From Candidatus Methanophagales archaeon (GTDB lineage Archaea; Halobacteriota; Syntropharchaeia; Alkanophagales; Methanospirareceae), in NCBI GenBank assembly GCA_028572065.1, contig JAPVWK010000001.1, forward strand, positions 1 to 45,008: 45,008 nucleotides of DNA. Direction: 5' to 3'. Position 1 is the stretch's first letter, and the number at the start of each line of letters is the position of its first letter. Made by a program: the position numbers and the translations under genes. Under the pieces are notes generated by a model. It had not been told where the DNA came from. It worked only from the letters and a program-made list of their open reading frames with translations, and did no database searches. Shown piece after piece: positions 2,437-43,009 of this stretch.

Positions 2437-2535
2437 AAAAAAAATGATATTGCGTATCTTTCCCCCTTTATCCCCTTCTTCTACGTTGACTTTTAGATAC
2501 AGAAAACGGGGCAAACTACAAAAATACAGAATAAG

Positions 2536-2546: not shown

Positions 2547-2568
2547 CTAAGCTTTAGCGATGTACATT

Positions 2569-3189: not shown

Positions 3190-3222
3190 TTAAAGGCATA
3201 AAAAAATAGGGAGATAAATGTT

Positions 3223-3705: not shown

Positions 3706-3733
3706 GACAAATACGGGTCTCGTTTCTTTTTTT
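3704..3733 (+). terminator. Hairpin plus T-tract after lipoprotein 2
   Basis: gagac-aaatacgg-gtctc overlaps the stop codon and is followed by gtttcttttttt. Confidence 0.5.
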
Positions 3734-3743
3734 ATGTCTAATA

Positions 3744-3816
3744 GTATAACTTCTATCTATTTAGGACGCAGATTCACACTGATTTACACGAATTTGAGTT
3801 CTTCTGCGTTAATCTG
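3744..3816 (-). repeat. Dispersed repeat family, copy A (inverted orientation)
   Basis: The reverse complement reads cagattaacgcagaagaactcaaattcgtgtaaatcagtgtgaatctgcgtcctaaatagatagaagttatac. It is nearly collinear with copies C (32926-32996) and E (39215-39288). Confidence 0.85.
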
Positions 3817-3893
3817 CAATAAATAAGTTTAGTTGAATACTGTGCGTTCTTGTTACCGGTTGTCTGGCGAAGCACGTAAAAACCGGAATACCT

Positions 3894-3904
3894 TTTTATA
3901 CTCT
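3894..3904 (+). promoter_or_regulatory. TATA box (TTTTTATACTC) of membrane-protein paralog 2
   Basis: Identical 11-mer to 2536-2546. It lies about 27 nt upstream of the ATG at 3926. Confidence 0.6.
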
Positions 3905-3925
3905 AAACAAAATGTAGGTTACATT

Positions 3926-4561
3926 ATGAAATCTGGTATCGCATTATCATATACCTTAAAGGGGATTATGGGGCTGCTCTTTTTTATCGGCCTCTGGAAA
4001 CAGGATTGGGGTGCAGCTTTTGGATGTCTTGTAGGCTTAGTGATTGTGATGATACCAACTTTCGTCAAGCGTAGGTATGACATAGCCTTGCCCTGGGTGC
4101 TTGAACTTATGATTACACTTGCTCTGTTTATACATGTATCTGGTGGCGTTCTTGGCTTATATGATGCTTTCGTACGTTATGATACTATGGCACATTTTGT
4201 TTCTTCATGTCTTATCGCCTTACTGGCATTTACTTTTATTTATATCTTGCATATTTATTGGGACGGCCTGCACATGGATAAGTATGCCATGGCTTTTGTC
4301 GTTGTCATAACTACTATGGCTATGGGTGTAGTCTGGGAAGTGTATGAGTGGGTAGTAGATATGTTATTCGGAACGACATTACAATTGGGGCTTTGGGACA
4401 CAATGAAAGACTTAGTTATGGATACCGTAGGCGGAATATTTATAGCTATAATTGGTGTACAGTGGATAAAGACAGGGAAGATGGATGAGATGACAAATGA
4501 CCTGGGAAAAGCGGTTGACGAAAAGATAATTAATAGGGAGAAGAAGGAGAAGAAAAAGTAG
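3926..4561 (+). CDS. Polytopic membrane protein, paralog 2 of 4
   Basis: The track ORF starts at a TTG at 3833. The internal ATG at 3926 (MKSGIALSYTLKG) aligns with the N-termini of the other paralogs and lies downstream of the conserved TATA box. It carries the same YDTMAHF / WEVYEW / DTMKDLVMD motifs. Confidence 0.75.
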   Translation: MKSGIALSYTLKGIMGLLFFIGLWKQDWGAAFGCLVGLVIVMIPTFVKRRYDIALPWVLELMITLALFIHVSGGVLGLYDAFVRYDTMAHFVSSCLIALLAFTFIYILHIYWDGLHMDKYAMAFVVVITTMAMGVVWEVYEWVVDMLFGTTLQLGLWDTMKDLVMDTVGGIFIAIIGVQWIKTGKMDEMTNDLGKAVDEKIINREKKEKKK

Positions 4562-4648
4562 TAGTAGCCGTAAATGTATTGCCTATTTTTTTATTGCCTT
4601 TAGTTGATAGTTATACATATAAGGAGTTACAGACAAGTTAGTAGCATC

Positions 4649-5281
4649 ATGACGAAATCACTGTGTATCATAGTATCGCATATATTTAGACTTGCAATGG
4701 TTTTTTTGTTTGTAGTTGCAATTGCGATAGATAATTTATCCTGGACTCTCATATGCCTCTCGGGTATTATTGTAAGCGCGGCACCTATTTTCCTGAAACG
4801 TTATTTAAAGGTAGAAGTACCCGATGTTCTTGACCTCCTGATTACGCTTGCATTGTTTTTACATACCGGCGCCGTTGGTGTATTTGATAATATATACCAT
4901 ATCCTTCCGGAGTTTGACCTGGTCACTCATTTTGCGTCGTCTGTTGTTGTCGCGTTCATTGCATTAATCGCACTTTATCTATTAGATGAGTACTGGGATG
5001 GACTGCACATAAACATATATGCCATGGCGTTTGCTGTTGTCGTTATTACTATTGCTTGCGGTGTTGTCTGGGAGTTAGGGGAATGGGCGATAGGCAAGTT
5101 GTGGGGTATCTATTTCCAGGTGGATTTAGACGATACCATGATAGATTTACTTGTTGATACAATAGGCGCGACAGTTATGGCGGTGATCGGTATATATCTA
5201 ATAAAAAACGGTACACTAAAAGAGCTGACAAAGAGCCTTGGAAAATTAGCGGACACACATCTAAATAAGAATAAACAGTAA
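4649..5281 (+). CDS. Polytopic membrane protein, paralog 3 of 4 (most divergent)
   Basis: The start is set at the ATG at 4649 (MTKSLCIIVSHIF) by alignment with the paralogs; the track start is 4604. Motifs are FDLVTHF, WELGEW and DDTMIDLLVD. Confidence 0.7.
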   Translation: MTKSLCIIVSHIFRLAMVFLFVVAIAIDNLSWTLICLSGIIVSAAPIFLKRYLKVEVPDVLDLLITLALFLHTGAVGVFDNIYHILPEFDLVTHFASSVVVAFIALIALYLLDEYWDGLHINIYAMAFAVVVITIACGVVWELGEWAIGKLWGIYFQVDLDDTMIDLLVDTIGATVMAVIGIYLIKNGTLKELTKSLGKLADTHLNKNKQ

Positions 5282-5319
5282 TTATTGCAGCCGACATCCT
5301 AACGCTATACAACACTTTT

Positions 5320-5330
5320 TTTTTATACTC
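5320..5330 (+). promoter_or_regulatory. TATA box (TTTTTATACTC) of membrane-protein paralog 4
   Basis: Identical 11-mer, about 25 nt upstream of the ATG at 5350. Confidence 0.6.
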
Positions 5331-5349
5331 GTAAATTCAAGAAGTGCAT

Positions 5350-5976
5350 ATGAAACCAGGTACCGTTGTATCTTATATCCTAAAGGCGATTATCGTGACC
5401 TTCTTTATTAGTGCAATCTGGCGAAATAACTGGATAATAGCCTTTGGATGTTTTGCGGGTATAATGTTTACGATATTACTACCTATGGTTCTCAAGCTAA
5501 AATTTAACATAACCCTGCCCTGGATACTTGACCTTATGATTACAGTGGCATTTTTTATACATATTTGCGGCGATGTTCTCTACGCATATGATACGATCCC
5601 GCATTATGATAACATTACTCATTTTGTTTCTGCCTGTGTTGTCGCACTTGTGGTTCTTATCGCGGTTTATATCCTGAGTGAATACTGGGGCGGACTTCAG
5701 GCTGACAAGTATGGTACCGCTTTTGTCGTTATCATAACTACCGTGGCAATGGGTGTAATCTGGGAATTCCGTGAGTGGTCCGCCGATGCGCTTTTTGGGA
5801 TGCAGACGCAATTGAGTCTCGAAGACACTATGACCGACCTACTTGTTAATGCCTTAGGAGGCGTATTTATAGCTATCGTTGGCATAAGACTATTAAAAAA
5901 CGGTGCACTAAAAGAGATGACAAAAGATCTGGGAGAACGAGTGGACACACACATAATTAACAAGAGAAAGCCGTAG
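5350..5976 (+). CDS. Polytopic membrane protein, paralog 4 of 4
   Basis: MKPGTVVSYILKA aligns with paralogs 1 and 2. Motifs are YDNITHF, WEFREW and EDTMTDLLVN. Confidence 0.75.
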   Translation: MKPGTVVSYILKAIIVTFFISAIWRNNWIIAFGCFAGIMFTILLPMVLKLKFNITLPWILDLMITVAFFIHICGDVLYAYDTIPHYDNITHFVSACVVALVVLIAVYILSEYWGGLQADKYGTAFVVIITTVAMGVIWEFREWSADALFGMQTQLSLEDTMTDLLVNALGGVFIAIVGIRLLKNGALKEMTKDLGERVDTHIINKRKP

Positions 5977-22304: not shown

Positions 22305-22337
22305 ACCACGAGATTACATGGATTTTCACGAGATTAT
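22305..22337 (+). repeat. CACRAGATT-type module related to the 5' part of the dispersed repeat family
   Basis: accacgagattacatggattttcacgagattat. Compare gacacagatttcacagatttacacagg at 32821-32847 and tgacacagattaacgctgattaacgcag at 39201-39228. It lies at the left edge of the AT-rich island. Confidence 0.4.
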
Positions 22338-29341: not shown

Positions 29342-29797
29342 ATGAGAATTGATGTTTTAACTTCTTTGGCGAAAAAAGATAAAACTTTCACCTTCGGAGA
29401 AGCTTTAGAGATAAGTGGTTTACCAAGAGGCCGTCTGAAAAAAGTAATCTACAGATTAGAACAGAGAGGTGCTATTGAACGCATAGAAAAAGGGAAATAT
29501 ATGATCATCCCGCTGGGTGCAGAAAAGGGAAAATACACGTTAAATGAATTCATTATTGGCTCTTTGCTGGTAAATCCTTATTGCATTGCTTACTGGAGCG
29601 CACTAAATTTTTATGGTTTGACCGAGCAGATACCAAATACTGTTTTCTTACAGACAACTGCAAGAAAGAAAAAGCAGGCAACTGAGATCTTTGGTGTCCG
29701 ATACAGGATTGTTAGAATAAAAGAAGAGAAGTTTTTTGGAATCCGAAAGGAATGGATTGAAGACACGCAAGTAAACATCACAGATAAATCTGGATGA
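29342..29797 (+). pseudogene. AbiEi-family antitoxin, C-terminally truncated
   Basis: The N-terminal wHTH (FTFGEALEISGLPRGRLKKVIYRLEQRGAIERIEKGKY) and YWSALNFYGLTEQIPN are AbiEi hallmarks. The ORF stops right after NITDK, where full-length members continue (TD.EKT..D). Confidence 0.65.
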
Positions 29798-29818
29798 CAA
29801 ACTAATGGGTGATTTGGA

Positions 29819-30139
29819 ATGATACCTTCAAGAGAGATAAGAGAGAAAGCGAGGGAGTGTGGTGTTCCCGAAACAACGGTTGAAAGGGACTATGCTCAGA
29901 ATTGGCTGTTAAAATACATCCCAACTAAAACTATAATTCTAAAAGGTGGCACAGGGATAAGAAAACACTATATTGCAAATTACAGATTCTCTGATGACCT
30001 GGACTTCACATTGCTGGAAGATTTAGAGGAAAAGGATTTAGAAGATGAGATCAGTAACGCAGTAAAAGTCGCTAAAGAAGAAAGCGGAATAAAATTTGAT
30101 AATCGGACGCAGAAGAACGCAGATATTCAGGATTTTTAA
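29819..30139 (+). pseudogene. AbiEii/AbiGii nucleotidyltransferase toxin, truncated after about 100 codons
   Basis: VERDYAQNWLL...LKGGTGIRKHYIANYRFSDDLDFT is the DUF1814/AbiEii N-terminal motif. The last 12 codons (NRTQKNADIQDF) are encoded by the left arm of repeat copy B. Confidence 0.7.
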
Positions 30140-30333
30140 TATACGGAATTGACGTAGGAGAGTATTAGAATCTTCTATTGAGTTTATAATAAACTGGGTT
30201 ATAGTGTTCTGGAAAAGGTTTATGAGATTGCAATGACGATATAAACAGGAAGTTAAACGTAAGGCATTTGATTTTCTGCGTAAATCTGCGTAAATCTGCG
30301 TAAATCTGCGTCCTAAATAGTTAGAACTTGTAC
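30099..30333 (+). repeat. Dispersed repeat family, composite copy B (left arm, GxxExxY-gene remnant, right arm with 10-nt units x4)
   Basis: The left arm ataatcggacgcagaagaacgcagat (30099-30124) matches 32903-32925. An internal frame 30182-30244 reads VYNKLGYSVLEKVYEIAMTI*. The right arm tctgcgtaaa x3 + tctgcgtcctaaatagttagaacttgtac lies at 30274-30333. Confidence 0.85.
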
Positions 30334-30363
30334 TTTATAAACAAAAAATCCACCTAAAAGACG

Positions 30364-32685
30364 TCATAGAATGTTCCCCCGCCACGCGCCCCTTAATTCA
30401 CCCAACGAAAGATCCACCAACGCCCTGTTACCATCACAAACGTCAACCCTCTTCGCATCCAGAACCTCACCGATTTTAATTACCGGCTGTCCCGCCATAA
30501 CAGCCTCAAATTTTGATGCTTCCTCTTGCCACACCTCAACAACCCACCTCGTGTTAGATTCCGAAAACAACTTGTAGTCACTTCTTAGCTTCGTATTTAC
30601 ACCCGCAATATCTATAGTAGCACCGAGGTCACCGCCTATTAACATCTCGCAGACGGCAACTGCAAGCCCACCTTCCGAAACGTCATGGCAGCTCGCTATC
30701 AGACCTTCTTGCATACTACCCAGTAAAGCACCCATTCGCTTCTTCAACACGTCCGGGTTCGTTTCTGGTACAACAACACCGTCCAGACCGCTCAACCTGA
30801 AATACTCGCTACCACCCAGTTCCTTATTCGTATCGCCGATCACATACAACAAATTCCCGGACTCTTTCACGTCCACACTAACGCAGTCTCTTACGTCTTC
30901 GCACAGCCCGATACCCAGAATAGTAGGAGTCGGCGGAATAGCTTCACCCATAGCTGCGGATTCGTTATACAAGCTCACATTACCACTCACAAACGGTATC
31001 CCCAACGCAGAAGCCATATACCCGAGCCCGCGACAGCTTTCATAGAACTCACCCATCCGGTCGGGCTTCTCAGGATTACCGAAATTCAAACAATCCGCAA
31101 ACGAATGAGCCACGGCACCCACAGCCGTCAAATTACGGCAGACTTCGTCCACCGCACTTGCCGCACCCCAAAACGGATTGATATTGCAATACGAAGGGTT
31201 TACATCCGCGGTAATCGCAAGTCCTTTATATGATTCTTCCACAGGCTTTATCACCGTGGCATCGCCATGCGTCTCTTTACCTTTTAGCCCTTGCAGTGGC
31301 TTTATTACCGTGGAAGCACGTACTTCATGGTCGTATTGTCTTATAACAGCTTCGCGTGAGCTGATATTTAACGCTGCGAGCAGCTTTTTCACTGTTTCGT
31401 TGTAGTCCACCGGCTCTGCTACGGAAAGCTCTTCGGTCTGCTCTGTCTTTAGTACCGTCTTCGGACGTTCATAAAGAGAACAGGCCACGAGGAAATCGGT
31501 ATCCAGCTCGAATATCAACTCATCCTGTAAATAAATCCTTACCTGCGAAGCTTGCGTACCGTTTTTGCTCGAACGGTTCTTAACAGTTTTGCCTATGGCC
31601 ACGGCATCTACGTCCCATTTGTCGAATATTTCATGCAATGCCGCCTCTTTCTCCGGCTGCACTGCCATTAGAAACCGTTCCTGCGATTCCGAAATCCAGA
31701 TCTCCCAGGCGTTAAGACCCGGTTCTTTTAATTCCACCGTCTCCAACTGTATTTCCGCACCGCATCCCCCGGCATGACACATCTCATTCACAGCACACGA
31801 CAAGCCGCCGCCACCGAGGTCTTTCATGCCGCTTATTAGACCTTTGTCGTTACATTCGAGTATAGCGTGCATTAGCGGTTCTTTCGTTATCGGGTCACCA
31901 ACCTGAACGGCACTTCGGGACTCTTCTTCACCTGTTAACTCGACAGACGCAAAAGTAACGCCGTGTATGCCATCCCGCCCGGTTTTTCCGCCGACCAGAA
32001 CAAGCACCTCACCCGGCTTCGCACGGCTTCTACTCAGGTCGGATTTCCGCATTATTCCCACGCAGCCCACGTTCACCACGCAATTGCCCACGTACCCGTC
32101 ATGGAAATAGACCATACCTGCACACGTTGGGATGCCTATACGGTTCCCGTAATCGCCTATACCTGATACAACACCGTCAAACAAGAATCTTGGATGTTTT
32201 ACGCCTTCCGGCACTTTTTCATCCGGATAATCTAACGGACCAAAGAACAGGGGGTCAATTAATGCGACTGGCTGTGCGCCCATACATATCACGTCCCGGA
32301 CAATGCCGCCTATCCCGGTTGCCGCACCACCATAAGGTTCTACCGCGGAAGGATGGTTATGGCTCTCGAACGCCAGGACATAAGCGTGTTCCTTGTCGAA
32401 TTCCACGACTCCCGCATCTTCTTTTATCACTAACATATTTTGTGGCGCTGTTATGCCAAAGATAAACTCTTTCAATATATTCTTCGAGCTTTTATAGCCG
32501 CAATGTTCCGACCACGATTGCGCTATGCACTGGACCTCTACATCAGTCGGTTCCCGCCCTTTTGCTACGAAATAGTGTTTTAGCCGTTGCATCTCATCTA
32601 AATTTAGCGAAAGTCCCATACTGTCACTTATTAGTTTCAATTCGGCATCTTCGGCATCCCGTAATCTTACTTCAACCCTTTTCAT
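30364..32685 (-). CDS. purL: Phosphoribosylformylglycinamidine synthase subunit PurL
   Basis: 773 aa. EPTDVE.....QSWSEHCGYK, HNHPSAVEPYGGAATGIGG and the duplicated AIR-synthase-like halves are all present. Confidence 0.9.
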   Translation of the reverse strand: MKRVEVRLRDAEDAELKLISDSMGLSLNLDEMQRLKHYFVAKGREPTDVEVQCIAQSWSEHCGYKSSKNILKEFIFGITAPQNMLVIKEDAGVVEFDKEHAYVLAFESHNHPSAVEPYGGAATGIGGIVRDVICMGAQPVALIDPLFFGPLDYPDEKVPEGVKHPRFLFDGVVSGIGDYGNRIGIPTCAGMVYFHDGYVGNCVVNVGCVGIMRKSDLSRSRAKPGEVLVLVGGKTGRDGIHGVTFASVELTGEEESRSAVQVGDPITKEPLMHAILECNDKGLISGMKDLGGGGLSCAVNEMCHAGGCGAEIQLETVELKEPGLNAWEIWISESQERFLMAVQPEKEAALHEIFDKWDVDAVAIGKTVKNRSSKNGTQASQVRIYLQDELIFELDTDFLVACSLYERPKTVLKTEQTEELSVAEPVDYNETVKKLLAALNISSREAVIRQYDHEVRASTVIKPLQGLKGKETHGDATVIKPVEESYKGLAITADVNPSYCNINPFWGAASAVDEVCRNLTAVGAVAHSFADCLNFGNPEKPDRMGEFYESCRGLGYMASALGIPFVSGNVSLYNESAAMGEAIPPTPTILGIGLCEDVRDCVSVDVKESGNLLYVIGDTNKELGGSEYFRLSGLDGVVVPETNPDVLKKRMGALLGSMQEGLIASCHDVSEGGLAVAVCEMLIGGDLGATIDIAGVNTKLRSDYKLFSESNTRWVVEVWQEEASKFEAVMAGQPVIKIGEVLDAKRVDVCDGNRALVDLSLGELRGAWRGNIL

Positions 32686-32817
32686 TGTTTCGTCCTTTTA
32701 TAATCGGTTACACAGATATTCTACACGGAAACATATAGTTTTTATGGAATTATGTTTTTTCGCTAACCACAGATTAGGGAACTCCTAGTAAATAGTTTAC
32801 CCATTTTGATAAATATC

Positions 32818-32996
32818 GTTGACACAGATTTCACAGATTTACACAGGCGGTACAGTCCTGATGATTAAGTTTTTACGGGTTGAATCAAAACAAGAAAAAA
32901 TAATAATCGGACGCAGATGACCGCAAATTAACGCAGAAGAACTCAAATCTGCGTAAATCCGTATGAATCTGCGTCCTAAATAGTTAGAAGTTGTAC
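32818..32996 (+). repeat. Dispersed repeat family, long copy C
   Basis: gttgacacagatttcacagatttacacagg ... ttacgggttgaatcaaaac ... ataatcggacgcagatgaccgcaaattaacgcagaagaactcaaatctgcgtaaatccgtatgaatctgcgtcctaaatagttagaagttgtac. The 9-nt inverted repeat is ggacgcaga (32909-32917) and tctgcgtcc (32968-32976). Confidence 0.85.
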
Positions 32997-33037
32997 TGTA
33001 TATACAATAAAAATACAAAAGATGAATAAAACGGCAT

Positions 33038-34903
33038 TTACCTTTTCCGCCTTATTCCATACACCGCAGCAACAGCCAACAATCCCGCAAGCGCTAATAT
33101 CCCCGCGGGCGTTAGTACCGGTACTTCTGCTGTTTCCTGTATTTGCGCCACGTCCCAGGTCCAGGTCTGCATATCAGTTCCATTCGCATTCGCAGCCACC
33201 GCCGAAACGTTATGCTTACCTGCTACTTCTGCTTGCAACCGGTAACTCGCATCCGTTACGCTTTCGTTTGTGCCCGGCAGTAGTGTACCCTCTAAATACC
33301 AGCTCACGCTTACTGTTTGATTCACGCTAACGCTGAACATCGTCCAGTTGCCGACCGTAGCACTAACCTGCGATGGCGGCATGAAAGACGTGATTTCCGG
33401 TGCTGCTGCTTGCTCCTTCGCTTGCAGTCTGGCACGGAGACATGCGTTAGAATCATAGTATTCTAAGTCCGTCCAGGAATCGCTTGCATTGAACCTTATA
33501 AAGCTCACATTCGACTGTATAGGTGGCTCCACCAGCCCTGTGATTTCATATTCAACTGGTACAGGGTAATCAAATCCAGGAGTGGTCATCTTAACACCAA
33601 CTGTGAATTGTTGACCTGCATCCATTGAAATCGGTGCGCTCAGAGGTATAGAGTAATAACCAAACTCCTGACAGTTGCCGGTTTGATGCGCAAGCTCAGT
33701 TCCAAAGAAATTATCCCAGACATAGAACTCATACTGCGCATTGTTGCTCGTGGTCCAGAAGTCAACATGGGTTAAATCCCCTGATTGTGCGGCGGTAAAG
33801 ACACTTGCCATCCAGGCGCTGTTGTCAAGGTAGCCCACAGCCCTTACAAAACCAGCCTCATCCCAGTAAAGCAGTTCTTCATCCGGTACATGGTCTTTAT
33901 ACTCAAGATAGGCCATTTCATGGACACAACTTGAGTTGTATGCAAGATAGAAATAGCCTTCATTTCCCCAATCTGTGCCCCAACTGTTCTTGGCGATCCA
34001 TGCTCCTGTTCCGTCATGGGCTGGGTTGGGATGCGGGACTGAATCGTTCCAGCCTATGATTGATACTAAGTGCCAACCTGCTCCAATGAGTGGTGGGCAT
34101 GGATAATAGTCATAAATAGTTCCCCAAGGTTCAACAGTATAGAACGCACTCCCATTGACAAAAAAACTCATTGTAACCGGTCCATGATTACATACCGCAT
34201 CTTTTATCACATCTATTTGTGAGCCGTCATTCGTTGCAAGGCGGTATCCGTCAACTTTCTTGACATGTGTACAATCATCACAGACACACGACCCATCACA
34301 GTTCAAAGCCGTGGTGTTGTAAGGATTGCATGATTCCAGAACCGAACCTTTCTTGAGGAATACCTCGGCGGCCTGCCAACTCCAGCCACCTGCGTCACCA
34401 GGGTCGTCAGCGTCGTCATACATATAGGTCCATGAACGGTCAACGCATAGGGCTACGCTCTGCTCTGAAAAATCATATGCACTTTCGCCCATTATTAGAA
34501 CTGCCGATTCCAGCACCGATGTAGTCCCAAAAATCCAGCAGGTGCCACAAGGTCTCTGGTCTTTGACCGTAGTCACCTTACCATAATCGCGCCAGTCGAA
34601 GCTGCTGGAGAACTCCTGAGCCTGCAGCGGTTTAACCTGAAGCGAATCCAGGTGGCTCAAGTCCATAGGTGGTGGAATATAACCGTAAAAAGGCTCGGGC
34701 GGATTCTCACAAAACTCAACAAAATCAGGATTTAGTTCAGCCAACTGTAGTACTTCCGTTCCCACTTCTCCCTGCAGGTCACCATCCGTAGCGGCACAAA
34801 TACTAATTCCAACAGGCATGGGCAGTGCACTTGTAACTAAGACAAATGCCATTAATGCCACAATTAATGATACTATCGGTTTTTTTATCTTTCCTTTTCC
34901 CAT
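33038..34903 (-). CDS. Secreted papain-family (C1) cysteine protease with Ig/PKD-like domain and C-terminal TP-x-G sorting signal
   Basis: Signal peptide at the N-terminus. QRPCGTCWIFGTTS carries the catalytic Cys, GWHLVSIIGW the His and KNSWGTDWGNEGY the Asn-Ser-Trp motif. The C-terminus is VLTPAGILALAGLLAVAAVYGIRRKR. Confidence 0.85.
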   Translation of the reverse strand: MGKGKIKKPIVSLIVALMAFVLVTSALPMPVGISICAATDGDLQGEVGTEVLQLAELNPDFVEFCENPPEPFYGYIPPPMDLSHLDSLQVKPLQAQEFSSSFDWRDYGKVTTVKDQRPCGTCWIFGTTSVLESAVLIMGESAYDFSEQSVALCVDRSWTYMYDDADDPGDAGGWSWQAAEVFLKKGSVLESCNPYNTTALNCDGSCVCDDCTHVKKVDGYRLATNDGSQIDVIKDAVCNHGPVTMSFFVNGSAFYTVEPWGTIYDYYPCPPLIGAGWHLVSIIGWNDSVPHPNPAHDGTGAWIAKNSWGTDWGNEGYFYLAYNSSCVHEMAYLEYKDHVPDEELLYWDEAGFVRAVGYLDNSAWMASVFTAAQSGDLTHVDFWTTSNNAQYEFYVWDNFFGTELAHQTGNCQEFGYYSIPLSAPISMDAGQQFTVGVKMTTPGFDYPVPVEYEITGLVEPPIQSNVSFIRFNASDSWTDLEYYDSNACLRARLQAKEQAAAPEITSFMPPSQVSATVGNWTMFSVSVNQTVSVSWYLEGTLLPGTNESVTDASYRLQAEVAGKHNVSAVAANANGTDMQTWTWDVAQIQETAEVPVLTPAGILALAGLLAVAAVYGIRRKR

Positions 34904-34953
34904 TTTTGATTTTACACTCCTGTGATACTGTTACAGCAAACATTATATAAAAG

Positions 34954-34972
34954 CATATGTTGAAAACACATG
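34954..34972. promoter_or_regulatory. 8-3-8 palindromic operator candidate CATATGTT-gaa-AACACATG, abutting the TATA box of the protease gene
   Basis: 16 of 19 positions are identical to 44188-44206. On the minus strand it is immediately followed by cTTTTATATAat (plus 34942-34953), 40-50 nt upstream of the ATG at 34903. Confidence 0.55.
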
Positions 34973-35133
34973 TTTTTAGCAGATGTTTAAATCATGTTTA
35001 TATAGCATCTGTTTCGTGTTGAGAGAAGTGCAAAAAAGCGTGTGGGCATATGAAGGGAAAGAAGGGGAAATACATAAAAGTTTGTTTTGTACCGGTACCG
35101 CAAAGAATCCCGGGATACGCATCAACTAAATTC

Positions 35134-35931
35134 TCAACCGAACTGTGACACCGAAGCGAGAATAAACCCAATCCCGGCAACTAAAACAATTGTAGCACCA
35201 GACGGTAGATTGAACGTATAAGACAGAAATAACCCGCTGATAGTTACGAACGCAGAAATGAATACCGAAAGAAGCATCATGCTACTCAACCGGTGCGAGA
35301 ACAGTCTGCTCATCGCTGCAGGTATGGTCAAGAGCGCAATGATCAGGATAACGCCTACTACCTGTATCAATACGACCACGGTCAATGCAATAAGACATAA
35401 AAGAATGAGGTATAATCGCTCTGCCGGAAGACCAATTACCGTTGCATACTCTTCGTCAAAAGAAATCGCCTGGAATTCGCGGTGTAATGCAAACACCACT
35501 ACGAGTATAACTGCGTTCAAACACAGCATCAGGATGATGTCCGAAGTAGGCACGGTTAAAATACTGCCGAATAGATAGCCAAACAGGTCCGGTGCATAAC
35601 CCGGTGTCAATCCTATGAGAATAATACCAATCGCCATACCCATAGCCCATAAAATGCCTATTGCTGTATCTTCCGGTATTTTTGTACGCTTCCCAACAAT
35701 GCCCATGCACAGTGCCGATGCGATGCTAAACGGGATAACGCCCAGAATAGGGTCCACACCCAGGAAATAGCCCAGACCAATACCACCAAAGGCGGCATGT
35801 GCTATTCCACCACTTATGAATACAATTCGCTTCACGACTACATAGACGCCGATAATTCCGCATGCGATGCTGGCTAACAACGCCGCTATAAGCGCGTTTC
35901 TCATGAAGTCATACTGCAATAGCTCTATCAT
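35134..35931 (-). CDS. Metal (Zn/Mn) ABC transporter permease, ABC-3/ZnuB family
   Basis: 265 aa with 8-9 TM segments. [41 protein letters not shown] is the ZnuB/TroCD signature. No cognate ATPase or binding protein lies adjacent. Confidence 0.8.
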
Positions 35932-35971
35932 TTACTTATAGTTGTACCCATTTGCATATGTTTATGCCAAC

Positions 35972-36048
35972 GTTTTTATGGGTTGAATCAAAGTTAAAAA
36001 ACTACACTACTTTAAATCTGCGTTAATCGGCGTGAATCCGTGTCTTAA
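35972..36048 (+). repeat. Dispersed repeat family, degenerate copy D
   Basis: tttttatgggttgaatcaaag matches 32872-32893 of copy C. Then follows aaatctgcgttaatcggcgtgaatccgtgtcttaaaaatc, i.e. three 10-nt units with a decayed core. Confidence 0.6.
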
Positions 36049-36099
36049 AAATCTTTGGAAAATGATGCCGTTCGGGTAAATTATTATTTGTGAGTTACC

Positions 36100-37017
36100 C
36101 TATGTCGCTTTCAGCCGCTCTATTATCTCACAAGCCTTGCATATTCCAGATGCCGACGCTTCTCCACACAATTCGCACCGTAAAAGCGGCTTATCTGAGT
36201 GCACCTCCGGCAATAGCCGCAAAAACCGCTCATTACCGCGCATTAGCGCATATTTTGTCCCCGGATGTCTCATTTCAAATTCATTCAGCATCCTCTTCAC
36301 CGTGAAACGGAATGAAAGTTCGGCATAAGGACAATGAACCGTGCTTAGCGGTATTCCCGCGGTCAGAGCATACAACGCGACTTCCTTTTCCAGTACTGTT
36401 CTTAGCGGTTTAATCCGTGGAATAAACTCTTTCCTGCGACCGCCTACTCTTTTCAATCTACCTATATCGCCTCTTACATAGTTAATCATGATAGACTGAA
36501 CCTCATCGTCCAGATTATGAGCAGTAGCAACTTTCGTAGCACCCAATTCCCGCGCTTTTTTGTCTATCAGTTTCCGTCTCAAGACGCCACAGAACGTACA
36601 AGGCGCCTGCTCGAAGCCTTTTGATGCTATTTCGTCCTGTGTAAATCCAAATTCATCAGCGAAAGAGCAAATACACAGCTCTATTTCTAATTCTTTCGCA
36701 ATCTTCTTGGCGTTATTCAGTGTTAACGCACGAAAGCCACTTATGCCTTCATCCACTGCGAGTGCAAACATTTGCAGGTCATTGCGGTTGTGAAAAATCT
36801 TTTTTAGCATATACAAAAGTGCAGAGCTGTCTTTTCCACCGCTTAGTGCTACTGCTATCTTATCGCCTCGCTCTATCATGGACTGTTTCCTCATCTCTTT
36901 CTTCGCTTTCCCTTCTACGGTATCAACGAAATGATGTTCGCATAAATGCAGTCCCGCGTATTTCTGATGTATTATTGCAGTATTCTGGCATCCGCCTTTA
37001 TTGCATCTCACGGTCAT
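36100..37017 (-). CDS. PP-loop ATPase of the TtuA/NcsA (Ncs6/Ctu1-like) tRNA 2-thiolation family
   Basis: SGGKDS is the PP-loop. The N-terminal Zn finger is C-x4-C...C-x-H-H and the C-terminal one is CELCG...CKAC. The start is set at MTVRCNKGGC (37017); the track start is 37068. Confidence 0.75.
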   Translation of the reverse strand: MTVRCNKGGCQNTAIIHQKYAGLHLCEHHFVDTVEGKAKKEMRKQSMIERGDKIAVALSGGKDSSALLYMLKKIFHNRNDLQMFALAVDEGISGFRALTLNNAKKIAKELEIELCICSFADEFGFTQDEIASKGFEQAPCTFCGVLRRKLIDKKARELGATKVATAHNLDDEVQSIMINYVRGDIGRLKRVGGRRKEFIPRIKPLRTVLEKEVALYALTAGIPLSTVHCPYAELSFRFTVKRMLNEFEMRHPGTKYALMRGNERFLRLLPEVHSDKPLLRCELCGEASASGICKACEIIERLKAT

Positions 37018-37099
37018 TGTCTCTGTTTTTGCGCGACAAAAAGTTTTGGGTGCTATATTCTTGTGCACTTATCTTTTATTTACTGTTAGGCATAAAGGC

Positions 37100-39109
37100 A
37101 TGAGATGGGACGATAATGAATACGTGAGGTATTTCAGCGAACTCGTGGAGTTAGAACGCGAAGAACAGATGCGTTTGCATGAAGAGGAGATGCGGCGATT
37201 GAGCGGCCGCGAGAGGGAAGAGAAGGGGCGTGCATTTCTGAAGCTGAAAGGCAAATCGCAGGGTTTGGGATTGGGTGGCAAATACTTAGTAAAGTTCAAA
37301 AAAGTAGCAGAGGCACTGCCAGATAGCGAAATAGAAGTTGGAGACCTAGTTTTAGTGAGTAAACCAGGTACTGCACCATGGGATGATGATAATCCGATGG
37401 GAACGGTAGCAGAAAAGAGTTTGTACACAATCACGGTTGCGTTTGATGACACGCCGCCGGGTTTTGTATTCCGTAAAGACCTCCGGATAGACCTTTTTGT
37501 GAATGACATCACGTTTCAACGGATGCTTGAAGCATTAAAGAAGTTTAAAAGACTACCGAGCTGGCGAAAGGATAAACTACTCGGTAAAACAGCACCGGAG
37601 TTCGGTAAGATAGACGAGCTAGACTTTATTAATCCGGCATTGAACAAGAGGCAGCAGGATGCAGTACTGAGAAGTATGGCAGCGCGTGATTTCTTTCTCA
37701 TTCATGGACCGCCGGGGACGGGAAAGACAATCACCTGCATAGAGCTGATAGCGCAATTAGTACATCGCGGTCACCGAGGTTTAGCTGCTGCGGACTCTAA
37801 CGTGGCAGTGGATAATCTGGTCGAGCGGTTAGATAAGATTGGTCTGAAAGTAGTGCGGATAGGACATCCTGCACGTGTGATTCCGGCTTTAAGGTGCAGG
37901 AGCCTGGATTATCTGGTTCAGGACGAAGCCGAATATATAGCTGCACAGAATCTAAGAGAAAGAGCGTATAGGCTAAAAGAAGGTATGGACGGGTCTACGC
38001 GACCTGAAATGCGCTGGAGACGTGGGTTGAGTGACGAAGCGATAGCGGAACTTGCAACGGCAGGAAAAACCACACGCGGGATACCGCAGAAGAAGATAGA
38101 GGGCATGAAACGCTGGATTGGTTTGAAGCAAAAGATAGATAAGTTATTCGGCGAGGCACGGCAACTGGAGGAGCGAGCGGTAAGGCGGATTATAGACAAT
38201 GCGGAAGTGATTTGTGCAACGAACAGCACTGTGGGTTCTGAGATATTGAAAACCAAGAAGTTCGACTTCGCGGTTATAGACGAAGCCACGCAGTCAACAG
38301 AACCTTCGTCGTTGATTTCCGTGCTCAAGACGAAGAGGTTCATTATGGCGGGTGATCACAAGCAGTTGCCACCTACGGTTTTGAACAAAGAGGCGGCGAG
38401 ATGTGGCTTGAGCACGAGCTTATTTGAACGACTTCTGGAAATTCATGGCAATAAAATACGGGTGATGCTTGAAGTTCAGTACAGAATGAGCGAGGAGATA
38501 GCGGAATTCCCGAGTAACGAGTTTTATGACGGTAAGCTAAAGGCCGGAGAAAACGTAAAGCGCCAAACCCTGGATGATTTACTGCAACCAATGCCAAAAA
38601 ACGATGAACAAGAGGGTGTTTTAGATTTTGTGCTACAGGAATACCCATTTGTGTTTATTGATACCGTGGACGGCGGAGTTGAATTCAAGGATAAGACCCG
38701 GAAAGGCGCTACGTCTAAGGAGAACGAAGGCGAAGCGCAGTTGGTTACTGATATTGTAGAACTGTTATTGAACAGGGGTATAAAGCCCGAAGATATAGCG
38801 GTTATATCGCCGTATGATGCGCAGGTAGGACTTATTAGAAAGATGCTCCGAGTGGATGACCTGGAGATAAAGACGGTGGATGGTTTTCAGGGCAGAGAGA
38901 AAGAGGTGGTTATTGTGTCTTTTGTTCGGAGTAATAACTATGGCGAGATTGGGTTCCTAAAGGATTTGAGACGGCTTAATGTGTCCATAACGAGAGCAAA
39001 AAGGAAGTTGGTTTTGATTGGTGATTCTAAAACGCTTGCGACTGAAGGCTGTTATGAACGGCTTGTTGCAGTGGCAAAGGCGAGAGGCGGGTATGAACGT
39101 GTGGTTTAG
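37100..39109 (+). CDS. Superfamily 1B helicase, Upf1/IGHMBP2 (DNA2/NAM7)-like
   Basis: GPPGTGKT (motif I), AADSNVAVDNL, VIDEATQ (motif II), AGDHKQLPPTV (motif III), LEVQYRM, VDGFQGREKEVV and VSITRAKRKL (motif VI). The start is chosen at the ATG at 37100 to avoid overlap with the divergent gene. Confidence 0.85.
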   Translation: MRWDDNEYVRYFSELVELEREEQMRLHEEEMRRLSGREREEKGRAFLKLKGKSQGLGLGGKYLVKFKKVAEALPDSEIEVGDLVLVSKPGTAPWDDDNPMGTVAEKSLYTITVAFDDTPPGFVFRKDLRIDLFVNDITFQRMLEALKKFKRLPSWRKDKLLGKTAPEFGKIDELDFINPALNKRQQDAVLRSMAARDFFLIHGPPGTGKTITCIELIAQLVHRGHRGLAAADSNVAVDNLVERLDKIGLKVVRIGHPARVIPALRCRSLDYLVQDEAEYIAAQNLRERAYRLKEGMDGSTRPEMRWRRGLSDEAIAELATAGKTTRGIPQKKIEGMKRWIGLKQKIDKLFGEARQLEERAVRRIIDNAEVICATNSTVGSEILKTKKFDFAVIDEATQSTEPSSLISVLKTKRFIMAGDHKQLPPTVLNKEAARCGLSTSLFERLLEIHGNKIRVMLEVQYRMSEEIAEFPSNEFYDGKLKAGENVKRQTLDDLLQPMPKNDEQEGVLDFVLQEYPFVFIDTVDGGVEFKDKTRKGATSKENEGEAQLVTDIVELLLNRGIKPEDIAVISPYDAQVGLIRKMLRVDDLEIKTVDGFQGREKEVVIVSFVRSNNYGEIGFLKDLRRLNVSITRAKRKLVLIGDSKTLATEGCYERLVAVAKARGGYERVV

Positions 39110-39198
39110 GTTCTTGTGTGTTCGGTTAATATAACCCACCAAAAGTAAAGACCTAAAAAAGTATTTTCAAAAAGCATAAAATTCAACTAAAAATAATT

Positions 39199-39288
39199 GT
39201 TGACACAGATTAACGCTGATTAACGCAGAAGGAACTAAATCCGTGTGAATCCGTGTGAATCTGCGTCCTAAATAGTTAGAAGTTATAC
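39199..39288 (+). repeat. Dispersed repeat family, copy E
   Basis: gttgacacagattaacgctgattaacgcagaaggaactaaatccgtgtgaatccgtgtgaatctgcgtcctaaatagttagaagttatac. Confidence 0.85.
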
Positions 39289-39392
39289 GGTAATATACAA
39301 GAACAAAGTTAGGATACCCTTAGCCATTTGCTGCGTTCGATTTGACAATATTGAAAAAGTTTTATTTTAGATACACCAATTTGTATTTCATA

Positions 39393-40478
39393 ATGGAAAA
39401 GACAATTTGTTTCGACCTTGAAGGACCGTTATCGCCGCAAGATAATGCTTATGAAGTGATGAAGCTAATCGGACAAGAGGGTGCTGCTATATTTGAGGTT
39501 ATTAGCAGGTATGATGATATAATAACTCTTGAGGGCCGAGCGGGCTACGAGCCTGGAGATACACTTGCGTTGGTCATCCCATTCCTTCTGCTGCATGGTA
39601 TAACAGAAGAAGATATAAGAACGGTATCAGAAAGCGCGAAACTAGTAGAAGGGGCGGACTACCTGTCGGAATACTTACGGGCTGAAAATTGGGACATTTA
39701 CATCATCTCCACGAGTTACGAACATCACGCTTACAATATAGGTCGTAAGCTTGGAATTGCGCCCCGAAAAATTATCTGCACGGAGTTGGACCTAGAAAAG
39801 AAGAAGCGGGATATACGAGTACAGGATAAAGACGCTTTCTTTTCTTTGATAAAACAAGCCGAAGAAGAGGTACTCGAGCTTTATTCACGCATGGACGAGC
39901 CGCAATTGATAGCGAATCGTCTGGATGAGTTCTTTTTCCGTCAACTGCATTCTTATGGCTTTGACGTATTCGGGACAAGGGTAATAGGCGGAGAACGGAA
40001 AGCGGAGGCAGTGCGGGCAATAGCGAAAGAGAAGGGCGAGGCACTGAGCGATGTGATCGTGGTTGGCGATAGCATTACCGATTATAAGATGCTGAATGAG
40101 GTTGCAACACACGACGGGGTAGCGGTCGTTTTCAATGGTAACGAATATGCAGTGCCTTATGCCAATGTAGGGCTCGCATCTGTTGATATGAGGTTTCTTC
40201 AGATTTTATGCGCTGCTTTTGACCGTGGCAGTAAAGAAGAGGTGATGGAAGTGGTAACAGAATGGGAAGATAACCGTGATTATTTTGAAACGAATCCAGA
40301 GGATATACCGGATAACTGCATTACTGATGACTTAAGAGACTTAATCCAGAAACAGCAGCTTTCTATGCCCTATTTCCATAATGTCGAGCGTGCCGACGAA
40401 AGAGGGCGAGACGAGATAATAAAGATACATAAGCGTGTAAGAACGCAAGTGAGAGAAGATGCAGGTAAGTTGGGATAA
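39393..40478 (+). CDS. HAD-superfamily hydrolase-like protein (family annotated EhaR-like in methanogens, by recall only)
   Basis: CFDLEGPL is HAD motif I (DxE variant) and VVGDSITDYKM is motif IV. About 361 aa from MEKTICFDLEGP. Confidence 0.5.
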   Translation: MEKTICFDLEGPLSPQDNAYEVMKLIGQEGAAIFEVISRYDDIITLEGRAGYEPGDTLALVIPFLLLHGITEEDIRTVSESAKLVEGADYLSEYLRAENWDIYIISTSYEHHAYNIGRKLGIAPRKIICTELDLEKKKRDIRVQDKDAFFSLIKQAEEEVLELYSRMDEPQLIANRLDEFFFRQLHSYGFDVFGTRVIGGERKAEAVRAIAKEKGEALSDVIVVGDSITDYKMLNEVATHDGVAVVFNGNEYAVPYANVGLASVDMRFLQILCAAFDRGSKEEVMEVVTEWEDNRDYFETNPEDIPDNCITDDLRDLIQKQQLSMPYFHNVERADERGRDEIIKIHKRVRTQVREDAGKLG

Positions 40479-40536
40479 TACCAAGCGGTAACATGTTATT
40501 AGCATCAACGCTTTCTTTGCGATGTGAGGGGAAATC

Positions 40537-40872
40537 ATGGGAAATAAAGAGACAATAGATATAGCCGAGTTTACAAAACTCGACCTGCGAATGGGAAAGA
40601 TAGAGAATGCCGAATTGATAGAGGGCAGCAAAAAGCTGATCAAGCTCGATGTGAATTTCGAGACCGAAACGAGACAGGTGGTTGCCGGCATTGCGGAAGA
40701 GTATAATCCAGAGGATTTGATTGGCGCACTCGTCCCAGTTCTTTTGAATCTGAAACCGGCAAAGCTGATGGGTGTAGAAAGTCAGGGCATGATTTTAGCT
40801 GTAGAAGTAAATGGTAAACCGATTTTATTGCACCCCGATAAAGAAGTGCCTGCCGGCAGCCGAATCTGCTAA
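40537..40872 (+). CDS. tRNA-binding domain protein (Trbp111/CsaA/MetRS C-terminal-like)
   Basis: F.KLDLRMGKI..AE.IEGS.KL.KL.V......RQVVAGIA..Y.PE.L.G..V.V..NLKP.KLMGV.SQGMILA is the classic OB-fold tRNA-binding signature. Confidence 0.85.
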   Translation: MGNKETIDIAEFTKLDLRMGKIENAELIEGSKKLIKLDVNFETETRQVVAGIAEEYNPEDLIGALVPVLLNLKPAKLMGVESQGMILAVEVNGKPILLHPDKEVPAGSRIC

Positions 40873-41041: not shown

Positions 41042-43009
41042 CTAACTCAGAAACTCGATTTTGTCCACCCAGCCGCAATCTGACCCGAAGCTAGTACTGC
41101 CATCTTTTACGTATCGCCACTTCAGCCTATGTGACCCCGAACTTATTTGATAGCTCCTTTGCTGCCAATCCATGTTACCGCTGATTCTATCCTGACCTAT
41201 ACCATCAATATAGAACTCCAGAAAGTCGAAATACTCCTCGGATGAAGTATTCCAGTAGAAGCTTACGGTGCCGGGCCCCGAAACTGTTGTTTGTAGCCAT
41301 GAGTTTTGGTCGTGAGATATAACACCACTCTGTGCGGCGCTATTGTTATAATAAGCTGTTGATGCGTCTCCAAGCCAGTTTGCAACTCCGCCTGTTATCC
41401 ACGAAAGTGCAGCGTTATCCAAGGCATCTTCTAAACTAAACGGTATTGGGACCGGTGCTGGTGGGGACGTTACGATTGGTTCCGGCGTTGACTCCGGTGT
41501 TGGTTCCGGTGTTGGTTCCGGCGTTGGTTCCGGCGTTGGTTCCGGCGTTGGTTCCGGTGTTGGTTCCGGCGTTGGTTCCGGCGTTGGTTCCGGCGTTGGT
41601 TCCGGCGTTGGTTCCGGTGTTGGTTCCGGTGTTGGTTCCGGTGTTGGTTCCGGTGTTGGTTCCGGCGTTGGTTCCGGTGTTGGCTCCGGTGTTGGTTCCG
41701 GTGTTGGTTCCGGTGTTGGTTCCGGTGTTGGTTCCGGCGTTGGTTCCGGTGTTGGTTCCGGTGTTGGTTCCGGCGTTGATTCCGGCGTTGGTTCCGGTGT
41801 TGGTTCCGGTGTTGGTGTTGGCGCTATACCTGAACTGAACTCCACTTTGTCCACCCAGCCGCAATCTAACCCGAAGCTAGTACTGCCATCTTTTACATAT
41901 TGCCACTTCAACCTATGCGATCCCGAACTTATTTGATAGCTCCTTTGCTGCCAATCCGCGTTACCGCTGATTCTATCATGACCTATACCATCAATATAGA
42001 ACTCCAGAAAGTCGAAATGCTCCTCGGATGAAACATTCCAATAGAAGCTTACGGTGCCGGGTCCCGAAACTGTTGTTTGTAGCCATGTGTTTTGGTCATG
42101 AGATATAATCCCGCTCTGTGCTGCGCTATTGTTATAATAAGAAGTTGTTGTCTCTCCAAGCCAGTTCGCCGTTCCGCCTGTTGACCACGAAAGTGCAGCG
42201 TTATCCACTGCCACGCTTAAGCTAACTATTTTTGGCGCAGGTGTTGGTGTTGGCGTTGGTGTTGGTGTCGGTGTTGGTGTCGGTGTTGGTGTCGGTGTTG
42301 GCGTCGGTATTGGCGTCGGTGTTGGCGTCGGTGTTGGCGTCGGTGTTGGCGTTGGTGTTGGCGTTGGCGTTGGCGTTGGCACCAAAGATACTATCTGAAC
42401 ACTCTTCCCTATACTCCCGGAAGTAATCAAAAATTCACCCGGCGGTACTCCTTCAGAACTCAGATCAAGCTCGAAATCACCGTTTGAATCGGCCTGGACT
42501 TTTAGAGCCATGTCCGTGGTCAGATTCAGAGAAGTTACGCTAGCGGCGGCATTGCCGAATACAGAAACATCTTTTTCGCCGTTGATGTCAACGGTTATGC
42601 CATACCACGTCACAGGAAAGGACATGGAAATCGTGGCAGTGCCACCAGTTGCTGTTTTAGGTCCCTCTAAGGGGTACACTACCGTCTGCCAGAATACAGG
42701 ATGTACCGATATTCGGATGTCCTCTACGTTTTCTGTGGTTACCGCGAAGTTTTTATCACCCTCGGGAAAGTGTAACCCGCTGAAATTATGATAATATTTT
42801 CCTTCTGACACCGGTATCGAGAGCACAAACGAGGTCTCTACCCAGACCTCCTCGTTTGGCGATGCCTTCCCTGATAGAGATACCGTTTCCCCCTCTACAA
42901 CCACATCCGGAGTTATGTTCAAGCCCGTTACAGCCGCGCTTGTGATGGTGATGGATACGAGTATTGTCAGAATTAGTGCACTAACCAATGCAAAGATTCT
43001 TGGATTCAT
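41042..43009 (-). CDS. Secreted repeat protein: signal peptide, N-terminal Ig-like region, (TP)n linker, beta-sandwich module, (EPTP)n linker, second copy of the module
   Basis: 655 aa. The module of about 125 aa (AALSW.TGG.ANWLG....[92 protein letters not shown]) occurs twice. There is no C-terminal anchor. Confidence 0.8.
41060..41420 (-). repeat. 361-nt intragenic direct repeat, copy 1 (partner at 41846-42206)
   Basis: My hand alignment of the two 361-nt segments needs no indels and shows roughly 30 mismatches. Confidence 0.85.
41476..41822 (-). repeat. 12-nt tandem repeat (ggttccggYgtt), about 29 units, encoding (EPTP)n
   Basis: Read directly from the sequence. The units differ almost only at one C/T position. 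It generates the spurious alternative-frame ORFs 41436..41864 and 41446..41838. Confidence 0.95.
41846..42206 (-). repeat. 361-nt intragenic direct repeat, copy 2
   Basis: See 41060-41420. Confidence 0.85.
42237..42380 (-). repeat. 6-nt periodic repeat (ggYgtY), encoding (TP)n
   Basis: gcaggtgttggtgttggcgttggtgttggtgtcggt... runs to ...ggcgttggcgttggc. It generates the spurious ORF 42232..42426. Confidence 0.9.

Follow-up and report, generated by a model that had tools for sequence, protein, structure and literature searches.

The closest concepts for a short dispersed repeat tied to a nuclease gene are miniature inverted-repeat transposable elements (MITEs), the 'REPtrons' formed by repetitive extragenic palindromic (REP) sequences and their REP-associated tyrosine transposases (RAYTs), and free-standing homing endonuclease genes. 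Archaeal MITEs have been described in Sulfolobus and haloarchaea, and I-Ssp6803I is a PD-(D/E)XK homing enzyme. Here we compare with these systems, each of which fails at least one defining feature, a repeat family from a 45,008-nt stretch of the genome of a Candidatus Methanophagales archaeon, a member of the anaerobic methanotrophic archaea group 1 (ANME-1). The stretch, called the window throughout, comprises positions 1 to 45,008 of contig JAPVWK010000001.1 (assembly GCA_028572065.1). The repeats are the ends of a small cassette carrying a GxxExxY nuclease gene (TIGR04256; PF13366, PDDEXK_3), together with deletion derivatives of that cassette. The function of the GxxExxY family is listed as unknown, and transfers between bacteria and archaea have been noted (PMC3424549). 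The protein family itself is known. In the literature on GxxExxY, PDDEXK_3 and TIGR04256 and on ANME-1 repeats, we found no description of inverted arms of 10-nt units, an embedded start codon or derivatives lacking the open reading frame (ORF). An earlier reading of the window from its letters alone (the original prediction) had likewise recognised no described archaeal element, in agreement with the literature on ANME-1 repeats, MITEs and GxxExxY.

Between the terminal inverted repeats, the intact cassette measures about 0.45 kb; its ANME-1 flanks bring this to about 0.55 kb. Its structure is clearest in three complete ANME-1 elements, L166, L167 and L168 (L numbers denote DNA loci compared with the window, and P numbers denote proteins). 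These read cacaagaaagaataatttttataatc, then GGACGCAG and ATG AAC GCA GAT AAT CAG at the start of 131 codons, then TAG and TTTTCTGCGTAAATCTGCGTAAATCTGCGTCC, and finally TAAATAGGATAGGTAGAAGTTATACAGTATATACAA. Their left module, arms and tail are the same as those of the window copies, and L033 follows the same plan except that its tail is cut short. The left arm, GGACGCAG-ATG-AACGCAGAT, contains the start codon and the first four codons (M-N-A-D), while the stop codon abuts the right arm, TTTTCTGCGTAAATCTGCGTAAATCTGCGTCC. The two arrays are imperfectly inverted (left ...GGACGCAGATGAACGCAGAT..., right ...ATCTGCGTAAATCTGCGTCC), and in the terminal inverted repeats GGACGCAGAT..ACGCAGAT pairs with ATCTGCGT..ATCTGCGTCC. 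The window holds only deletion derivatives of this cassette and no complete one. The original prediction had picked out a 9-nt inverted repeat, GGACGCAGA/TCTGCGTCC, in its copies B and C. Its presence is confirmed: it is the parent cassette's terminal inverted repeat, since intact cassettes carry matching arms as a bracket.

The family is well above chance in the window, and all five of the predicted copies (A to E) were found at or near their predicted positions. The 24-mer CTGCGTCCTAAATAGTTAGAAGTT has four matches with at most one mismatch and none in 100 shuffles, and the unit core AATCYGYGT occurs 17 times against 1.48 expected. A repeat search also recovers the family, both as direct (D5, D6, D19) and as inverted repeats (I1-I4, I17). 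Each copy is built from a left array of ACRCNGATNN units, a loop or longer insert, a right array of AATCYGYGTR units ending in GCGTCC, and a conserved tail. The right-array unit is the reverse complement of the left-array unit; the arm unit can also be written ACGCAGATNN. The shared core of about 75 nt in the original prediction is present, but alignment of ANME-1 loci shows that whole units extend further, comprising a left module (ACAAGAAAGnATAAAATT...), two arms and a tail running on to ...GTTATACTGTATATACAA. The left module reads ACAAGAAAG(C/A)ATAAAATT, then TGATAATC or CAACTAAAATTAATTATTG, and the tail reads CCTAAATAGTTAGAAGTTATACTGTATATACAA, which contains TTTATATA. Left module and tail lie 72-359 nt apart for all 21 left modules, and a search for solitary left modules or tails, as a possible pre-existing target site, found none. 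Three forms can be distinguished. T1 is a hairpin only, in which an 8-10-nt loop joins the arms and about 72-101 nt separate left module and tail. T2 spans about 215-265 nt between the same points, and T3 is a separate element with its own loop and its own tail, intact in L008 and L016.

The encoded protein has 131 amino acids and belongs to the PD-(D/E)XK nuclease superfamily, scoring 137.5 bits against TIGR04256. The GxxExxY motif itself corresponds to G31..E34..Y37, and none of 66 aligned sequences varies at D73, E83 or K85. A reconstructed 131-aa parent has at least 7,997 protein matches at E<=1e-10. The best 120 of these are 131-149 aa long (mostly 131) and 83-92% identical, and the sources named among the matches include Deltaproteobacteria, Desulfobacteraceae, Syntrophobacter sp. 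DG_60, Elusimicrobiota, Thermodesulfobacteriota and Methanophagales. The whole GxxExxY family comprises 18,528 clusters at 50% identity (profile search, E<=0.001), and many cluster representatives start with MNAD or MDAD, corresponding to ATGAACGCAGAT. Searching the PDB by sequence gave no relative, and the sole PADLOC hit was a weak one to Cas4b (E 0.006). Some family members, of 250-277 aa, join two GxxExxY domains in tandem (P0241-P0245, P0267, P0302 and others).

How the window copies relate to this parent is shown by an alignment series that runs from the full element through the T2 stub, window copy B and a 'micro' form in L024 to window copy C. The ORF is lost stepwise, from a full gene to a 63-66-aa stub, the micro form and finally a bare hairpin, with both ends retained throughout. 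To give T2, 201 nt were deleted in frame between two TTAA microhomologies, which removed the catalytic core D73-K85 (D73, E83 and K85). The resulting junction, ...DLTEEIIRIFYRVYNKLGYGFLEKVYENAMMIEL joined to NFGTKPEVKRKAFD..., is identical at unrelated loci in L005, L008, L014, L022, L028, L029, L030 and L051. Copy B has lost a further 17 nt relative to T2, its start codon in the left terminal inverted repeat has changed from ATG to AAG, and three in-frame stops have appeared. Its stub, which also lacks the catalytic core, is dead, with the frame reading ...ELT*ESIRIFY*VYNKLGYSVLEKVYEIAMTI*. With stops written as X, this stub still matches PF13366 at 24.4 bits (E 3.9e-5, cut-off 22), and its internal deletion shows when it is aligned with the complete cassette L166. 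One intact stub (P0001) reaches 39.4 bits against TIGR04256 (cut-off 35). A stub search of a protein collection gave 227 matches, of which the best 120 are proteins of 41-98 aa with PF13366, many of them from Methanophagaceae, and represent many different internal deletions of one parent.

Selection separates the two classes of copy. Full-length genes have ratios of non-synonymous to synonymous substitution (dN/dS) of 0.06-0.26, indicating purifying selection, whereas the stubs have ratios of 1.4-8.5, with no purifying selection. The cassette is widespread, selected as a protein, and quickly decaying and turning over.

Within ANME-1, the turnover can be followed from genome to genome. An exact scan of 185,579 species-representative genomes for the arm-plus-tail 23-mer ATCTGCGTCCTAAATAGWTAGAA found 30 stretches in nine assemblies, all from ANME-1 / Methanophagales, and a tail profile built for nhmmer found 40 copies at E<1e-5 in 229 kb (window and ANME-1 loci). 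Further copies, whose absence from the genome had been named as grounds for rejecting the family, are thus numerous. T1 and T2 copies are more than 80% identical in unrelated flanks, both within and between genomes. The presence/absence polymorphism proposed as a check was also found, as copies C and D vary between genomes that are 91-96% identical. Specifically, L025 is syntenic with window 32568-40862 at that identity and has copy E but neither C nor D. In place of block 32745-33007 at the copy C site it has 66 unrelated nt, and at the copy D site about 23 nt. Copy E occupies the orthologous site in L025, and differs there by several substitutions and small indels although the syntenic block is 95.9% identical. 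L018, which is 95% identical over purL, retains the right arm of copy B with its interior deleted further, and this remnant adjoins a 4.5-kb segment missing from the window. The number of units in the arms varies at one orthologous locus (L006, L010, L013, L017 and L021). At the same position in the T3 loop, one hairpin is found in the window and a different one in L024, and an outer hairpin built from a different unit type encloses the complete L166 element. The purL protein of the window was found on two Logan contigs of 2.5 kb, aligning to 30272-32816 and 30310-32816; their ends fall within copy B on one side and at the margin of copy C on the other, where a repeat present in many copies would be expected to interrupt assembly. 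In L006 (QENJ01000277.1), the same hairpin is inverted at both ends of a 6.3-kb contig (469-513 and 5806-5850) with more than 100 nt of identical flank, which could be a large inverted duplication or an assembly artefact.

The same cassette occurs beyond ANME-1. In contigs named bacterial (L034-L039), the bracket of GGACGCAG before ATG...TAG, and of TTTTCTGCG...ATCTGCGTCC after it, is the same as in ANME-1, and the genes in arm-bracketed cassettes of bacterial contigs are 84-88% identical. The closest pair is the L166 ORF and that of L038 (named Syntrophobacter sp. DG_60), with 90.9% nucleotide identity and a synonymous divergence (dS) of 0.25. The outer flanks differ from those in ANME-1, being ...TAGGAATTTCCATTTT on the left (L038/L039) and TAATTAATTT on the right; a close left-flank variant, ...TATAGGAAATCCCATTTT, occurs at several ORF-less metagenome copies. 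The ANME-1 left module ACAAGAAAGnATAAAATT is lineage-specific and resembles a B recognition element with a TATA box (BRE/TATA). Made up of a purine-rich stretch and ATAAAAT, it precedes the ATG by about 20-25 nt; it may act as a promoter suited to its host domain, as may the flank of bacterial type. A divergent GC-rich subfamily, L140 (MDADERRYKEITHQIIGAGFDV...), has an inverted repeat of three units matching at 29 of 30 positions, with AGCCGCAGAT GGACGCAGAT GAACGCAGAT set against ATCTGCGTTT ATCTGCGTCC ATCTGCGGCT, and again carries the ATG in its arm.

In metagenomes, a right end lies within 700 nt downstream of the left end for 28 of 61 usable left ends, and upstream for three. The left-right distance in these 28 is 37-152 nt in 22 cases, 261-268 nt in three and 398-453 nt in three. 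Since most of these distances fall at 37-152 nt, decay to ORF-less hairpins is the rule in bacteria too. In L046 (bacterial metagenome, 4859-5531), an ORF-less hairpin is directly followed by a full-length cassette and then by a duplicated gene 3' end, in tandem arrangement. Neither cassette nor hairpin was matched in the reference plasmid and phage collections. No viral contig has the tail, and six viral stretches show the left-arm pattern.

These observations point to a model that we regard as probable: the repeats are non-autonomous, MITE-like remnants of a small selfish GxxExxY nuclease-gene cassette. Full-length nuclease would be made from intact copies elsewhere in the genome and would recognise the 10-bp-phased units. 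It would then cause its own cassette to be copied or moved, and would act likewise in trans on the ORF-less hairpins; the route could be homing or gene conversion into related hairpins, or else excision and insertion. On this view, all five copies in the window would now be inert remnants, whose main present effect might be to mark hypervariable, rearrangement-prone intergenic DNA. Within this model, the specific proposition that the nuclease recognises the units and promotes copying or movement of the cassette and its ORF-less relatives seems to us evenly balanced. A broader proposal is possible but somewhat doubtful. GxxExxY/PDDEXK_3 might be the enzyme of an unrecognised class of minimal autonomous mobile elements of about 0.5 kb, in which a single 131-aa nuclease would act on 10-bp-phased inverted repeat arrays bearing its own start codon; such elements would spawn hairpin MITEs and move freely between bacteria and archaea (here ANME-1 and bacteria of similar sediments).

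The original prediction had left the nature of the family open among several interpretations. Its MITE-like option is borne out by internally deleted non-coding derivatives that keep both parent ends, sit at unrelated loci, and are present or absent between genomes 91-96% identical. The REP-like option, with a partner of the TnpA(REP)/IS200 type, is not, as the cognate gene encodes a PF13366/TIGR04256 PD-(D/E)XK protein and no HUH transposase.

Several observations nevertheless weigh against the selfish-cassette model. By eye, about 30 copies and two pairs of filled and empty sites show no target-site duplication, and filled and empty sites differ by replacement with unrelated short sequence instead of clean insertion; strict transposition is for these reasons not demonstrated. 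An AlphaFold2 model, built from 66 low-diversity sequences, reached a predicted local distance difference test score (pLDDT) of 54, too poor to refine the enzymology. The assignment of contigs to bacteria or archaea rests on the names of metagenome-assembled genomes. Finally, a GC-rich viral contig, L044 (IMGVR_UViG_3300042991_000921, 2930-4090), carries the same arms both as an ORF-less hairpin and around a 189-aa ORF that is not GxxExxY. This ORF starts with MDADERR inside the arm, has CxxC pairs in its sequence and has no Pfam match. The arms are consequently not exclusive to GxxExxY cargo.

This last case is the starting point of the main rival, which we judge unlikely. In this reading, the arms are generic cassette boundaries served by a recombinase or nuclease acting in trans and encoded elsewhere, GxxExxY is merely the commonest cargo, and the hairpins are empty cassettes. 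Such a system would suit the viral ORF, the large numerical excess of ORF-less over ORF-bearing hairpins, and the several unit families (CCACGAGATT, CCACAGAG, CGCAGAG) that make similar hairpins in ANME-1. However, GxxExxY occupies four of the five distinct long arm-bracketed intervals (>=380 nt), divergent GxxExxY subfamilies keep the same arms with an embedded start codon, and the MNAD/MDAD start recurs among the cluster representatives described above. Further, no transposase or candidate recombinase lies beside any copy or locus examined, and the only ORF of the cassette is PF13366/TIGR04256.

Quite improbable is the view that the hairpins are small RNA genes or cis-regulatory RNA or DNA (terminators, promoters or antisense), transcribed from the left module or from the tail motif TTTATATA. 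Every ANME-1 copy has conserved TATA-like motifs at its two ends, and of the 14 tails that are co-directional with the gene they face, 10 end less than 100 nt before the gene start. In 18 other cases, however, the tail faces a convergent gene, and with no bias in orientation a mobile promoter was rejected. Copies C and E fold well (z -2.5 to -6.5) and A weakly. The strongest hairpin is that of copy C (DNA -17.3 kcal/mol, z -6.1; RNA -29.2, z -6.5), followed here by copies E (DNA -9.9 kcal/mol, z -2.5; RNA -23.7, z -4.8) and A (DNA -6.4 kcal/mol, z -1.4); copy D forms no hairpin. Against this stability, folding both strands as RNA and as DNA revealed no strand asymmetry, and 11 hairpins with three plus three units showed compensatory changes in none of 29 pairs. 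In that set, 78.5% of cells are paired compared with 78.4% in shuffles, and 14 pairs depart only by broken cells. Rfam gave nothing at the repeats, either at gathering thresholds over the whole window, where only a group II intron was matched elsewhere, or at E<=1 over 29900-39500. Left and right unit numbers vary independently, also within copies and at one orthologous locus. The copies are dispensable between close genomes, and copy E has diverged from its L025 orthologue more than the surrounding block. The small-RNA option of the original prediction is accordingly left without support. A role of the arrays as phased binding sites (10 bp being one helical turn) for a host chromatin, replication or segregation protein, serving as chromosomal landmarks, is barely credible, since the 10-nt periodicity and tandem units that might suggest it are outweighed by the loss or replacement of copies between close genomes, the unconstrained decay of units, the use of the same units to bracket a mobile gene in unrelated bacteria, and the lack of positional regularity along the window.

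The window copies and related remnants are listed in Table 1. The window has a G+C content of 43%, and the genes around the copies encode PurL, a C1 peptidase, an ABC-3 (ZnuB-like) permease, a TtuA-like protein, an SF1 helicase and a HAD hydrolase.

Table 1. Repeat copies, their parts and related remnants in the 45,008-nt window (TIR, terminal inverted repeat).
Feature	Position	Strand	Description
24-mer CTGCGTCCTAAATAGTTAGAAGTT	3748-3771	-
24-mer CTGCGTCCTAAATAGTTAGAAGTT	30306-30329	+
24-mer CTGCGTCCTAAATAGTTAGAAGTT	32969-32992	+
24-mer CTGCGTCCTAAATAGTTAGAAGTT	39261-39284	+
Copy A	3735-3853	-	ORF-less hairpin (T1); left module 3817-3853, arms and loop 3764-3816, tail 3735-3763
Copy B	30075-30344	+	Mini-GxxExxY derivative (T2); left module 30075-30104, left TIR 30105-30124, stub 30125-30271, right arm 30272-30313, tail 30314-30344
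T3 5' half	32776-32890	+	Left arm GACACAGATTTCACAGATTTACACAGG and part of loop, broken off at ...GAATCAAAA
Copy C proper	32891-33007	+	ORF-less hairpin (T1); left module 32891-32908, arms 32909-32976, tail 32977-33007
Copy D	35973-36079	+	T3 3' part; loop remnant, right arm AATCTGCGTTAATCGGCGTGAATCCGTGTC, T3-specific tail; no left arm
Copy E	39168-39300	+	ORF-less hairpin (T1); left module 39168-39201, arms 39202-39268, tail 39269-39300
Isolated unit remnant AATCCGTGTAATCGTGTGG	145-164	+	Single exact unit, weak significance
Related unit family remnant (CCACGAGATTACATGGATTTTCACGAGATT)	22305-22337	+

Comparison with other ANME-1 loci refines several of these entries. Copy A is 77-82% identical to T1 copies in L004, L011 and L015 and 74% identical to that in L008, and the TATA-like end of its tail is degenerate. 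It lies between two of five paralogous small genes in tandem (window 1876-5976, + strand; 158-242 aa) with similar N-termini. Copy B, whose right arm consists of four 10-nt units, matches the clearest T2 copies (L003, L005, L008, L014, L022, L028 and L030) at 78-88% identity over about 270 nt, and the T2 copy of L029 at 68%. The original prediction had placed all copies between genes, which does not fully hold for copy B, as it is entered by the frame of a truncated AbiEii gene (29819-30139). An AbiEi antitoxin-like gene followed by this AbiEii toxin gene occupies window 29342-30139 on the + strand. The window AbiEii is truncated to 106 aa (profile positions 13-72 of 238), and the syntenic L018 has a different 4.5-kb segment.

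What had been called copy C is present but composite, the 5' half of a T3 element being joined to a GGACGCAGA-type hairpin. The T3 half is 81-88% identical to the T3 left half in L008, L016 and L024, while the arms of copy C proper read GGACGCAGATGACC...TCTGCGTCC, with the ATG kept. Copy D is likewise present, as the 3' part of a T3 element without the tail of the original core, and is 82-86% identical to L008 2937-3067 and to L016. Copy E has three left and three right units. The partial modules at 145-164 and 22305-22337 exist, but belong to related yet different 10-nt unit families (e.g. CCACGAGATT) that recur at other ANME-1 loci; CCACGAGATT units are also found in L004 and L011, with a degenerate trace in L025 at the copy C site. 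Such families (CCACGAGATT; CCACAGAGAC / CGCAGAGNAC) build similar inverted arrays in ANME-1 intergenic DNA, at window 22305-22337, in L004, L011 and L025 (7759-7825), and in L024, L031, L051, L059, L106 and L166. Some of these arrays surround a GGACGCAGA-type element as an outer hairpin.

Two further features of the window lie apart from the repeats. The group II intron match (RF00029, domain V/VI, 59.4 bits) is at 1620-1697 on the + strand; because the window has no ORF of at least 200 aa upstream of it, and hence no candidate reverse-transcriptase gene there, the intron either lacks an ORF, has decayed or is truncated by the edge of the window. On the - strand, a 655-aa ORF (41042-43009) includes about 40 tandem copies of a 12-nt unit at 41392-41895, and a 300-nt segment of it is duplicated internally (41052-41351 and 41838-42137, 93% identical).

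The cassette gives a very large protein family of listed-unknown function a concrete, testable role, namely as a nuclease linked to the inverted repeat arrays on either side of its own gene. It also explains odd intergenic repeats in ANME-1 and in many bacterial metagenome assemblies, as well as spurious peptides translated from the repeats, such as ...NADLRRFTQI... and ...ICVNLRKSA.... The repeats break short-read assemblies, as seen in the purL contigs from the source reads, which end exactly at repeats. That an ANME-1 copy and one from a bacterial-named contig share 91% nucleotide identity is a marker of recent cross-domain gene flow. If the nuclease were shown to act on the arms, the cassette would be among the smallest self-contained mobile units known.

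In relation to described systems, the window family most resembles MITEs in being short (here about 70-270 nt), non-coding, multi-copy and intergenic, in having terminal inverted repeats, in deriving by internal deletion from an ORF-bearing parent that shares both ends, and in its presence/absence polymorphism. It differs in that no target-site duplication was seen, in that the parent encodes only a 131-aa PD-(D/E)XK protein and no DDE, HUH or serine/tyrosine transposase, and in that the inverted repeats are arrays of a 10-nt unit with variable copy number. REP sequences and bacterial interspersed mosaic elements (BIMEs), with their RAYT (TnpA-REP) genes, are likewise dispersed short palindromic intergenic repeats with a cognate nuclease gene flanked by inverted copies of the same repeats. 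Their cognate gene, however, is a domesticated, single-copy HUH Y1 (IS200/IS605-like) transposase, whereas the cassette encodes PF13366/TIGR04256 and is multi-copy, fast-decaying and horizontally transferred. Free-standing homing endonuclease genes share with the cassette a very small selfish nuclease ORF and a patchy distribution across domains; in both, intact copies are under purifying selection, and a cycle of invasion, degeneration and loss can be seen. Unlike them, the cassette lies outside any intron or intein, is bracketed by inverted repeats, occupies numerous intergenic sites that are not homologous, and leaves remnants in the form of hairpins. Pneumococcal BOX and Neisseria Correia elements are also modular, with variable numbers of internal units, hairpin potential and promoter-like ends, but show no sequence relationship to the window family, and we know of no cognate ORF-bearing parent with the same ends for either. 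Among proteins, the affinity is direct, as the cassette ORF and its stubs are themselves members of the GxxExxY family.

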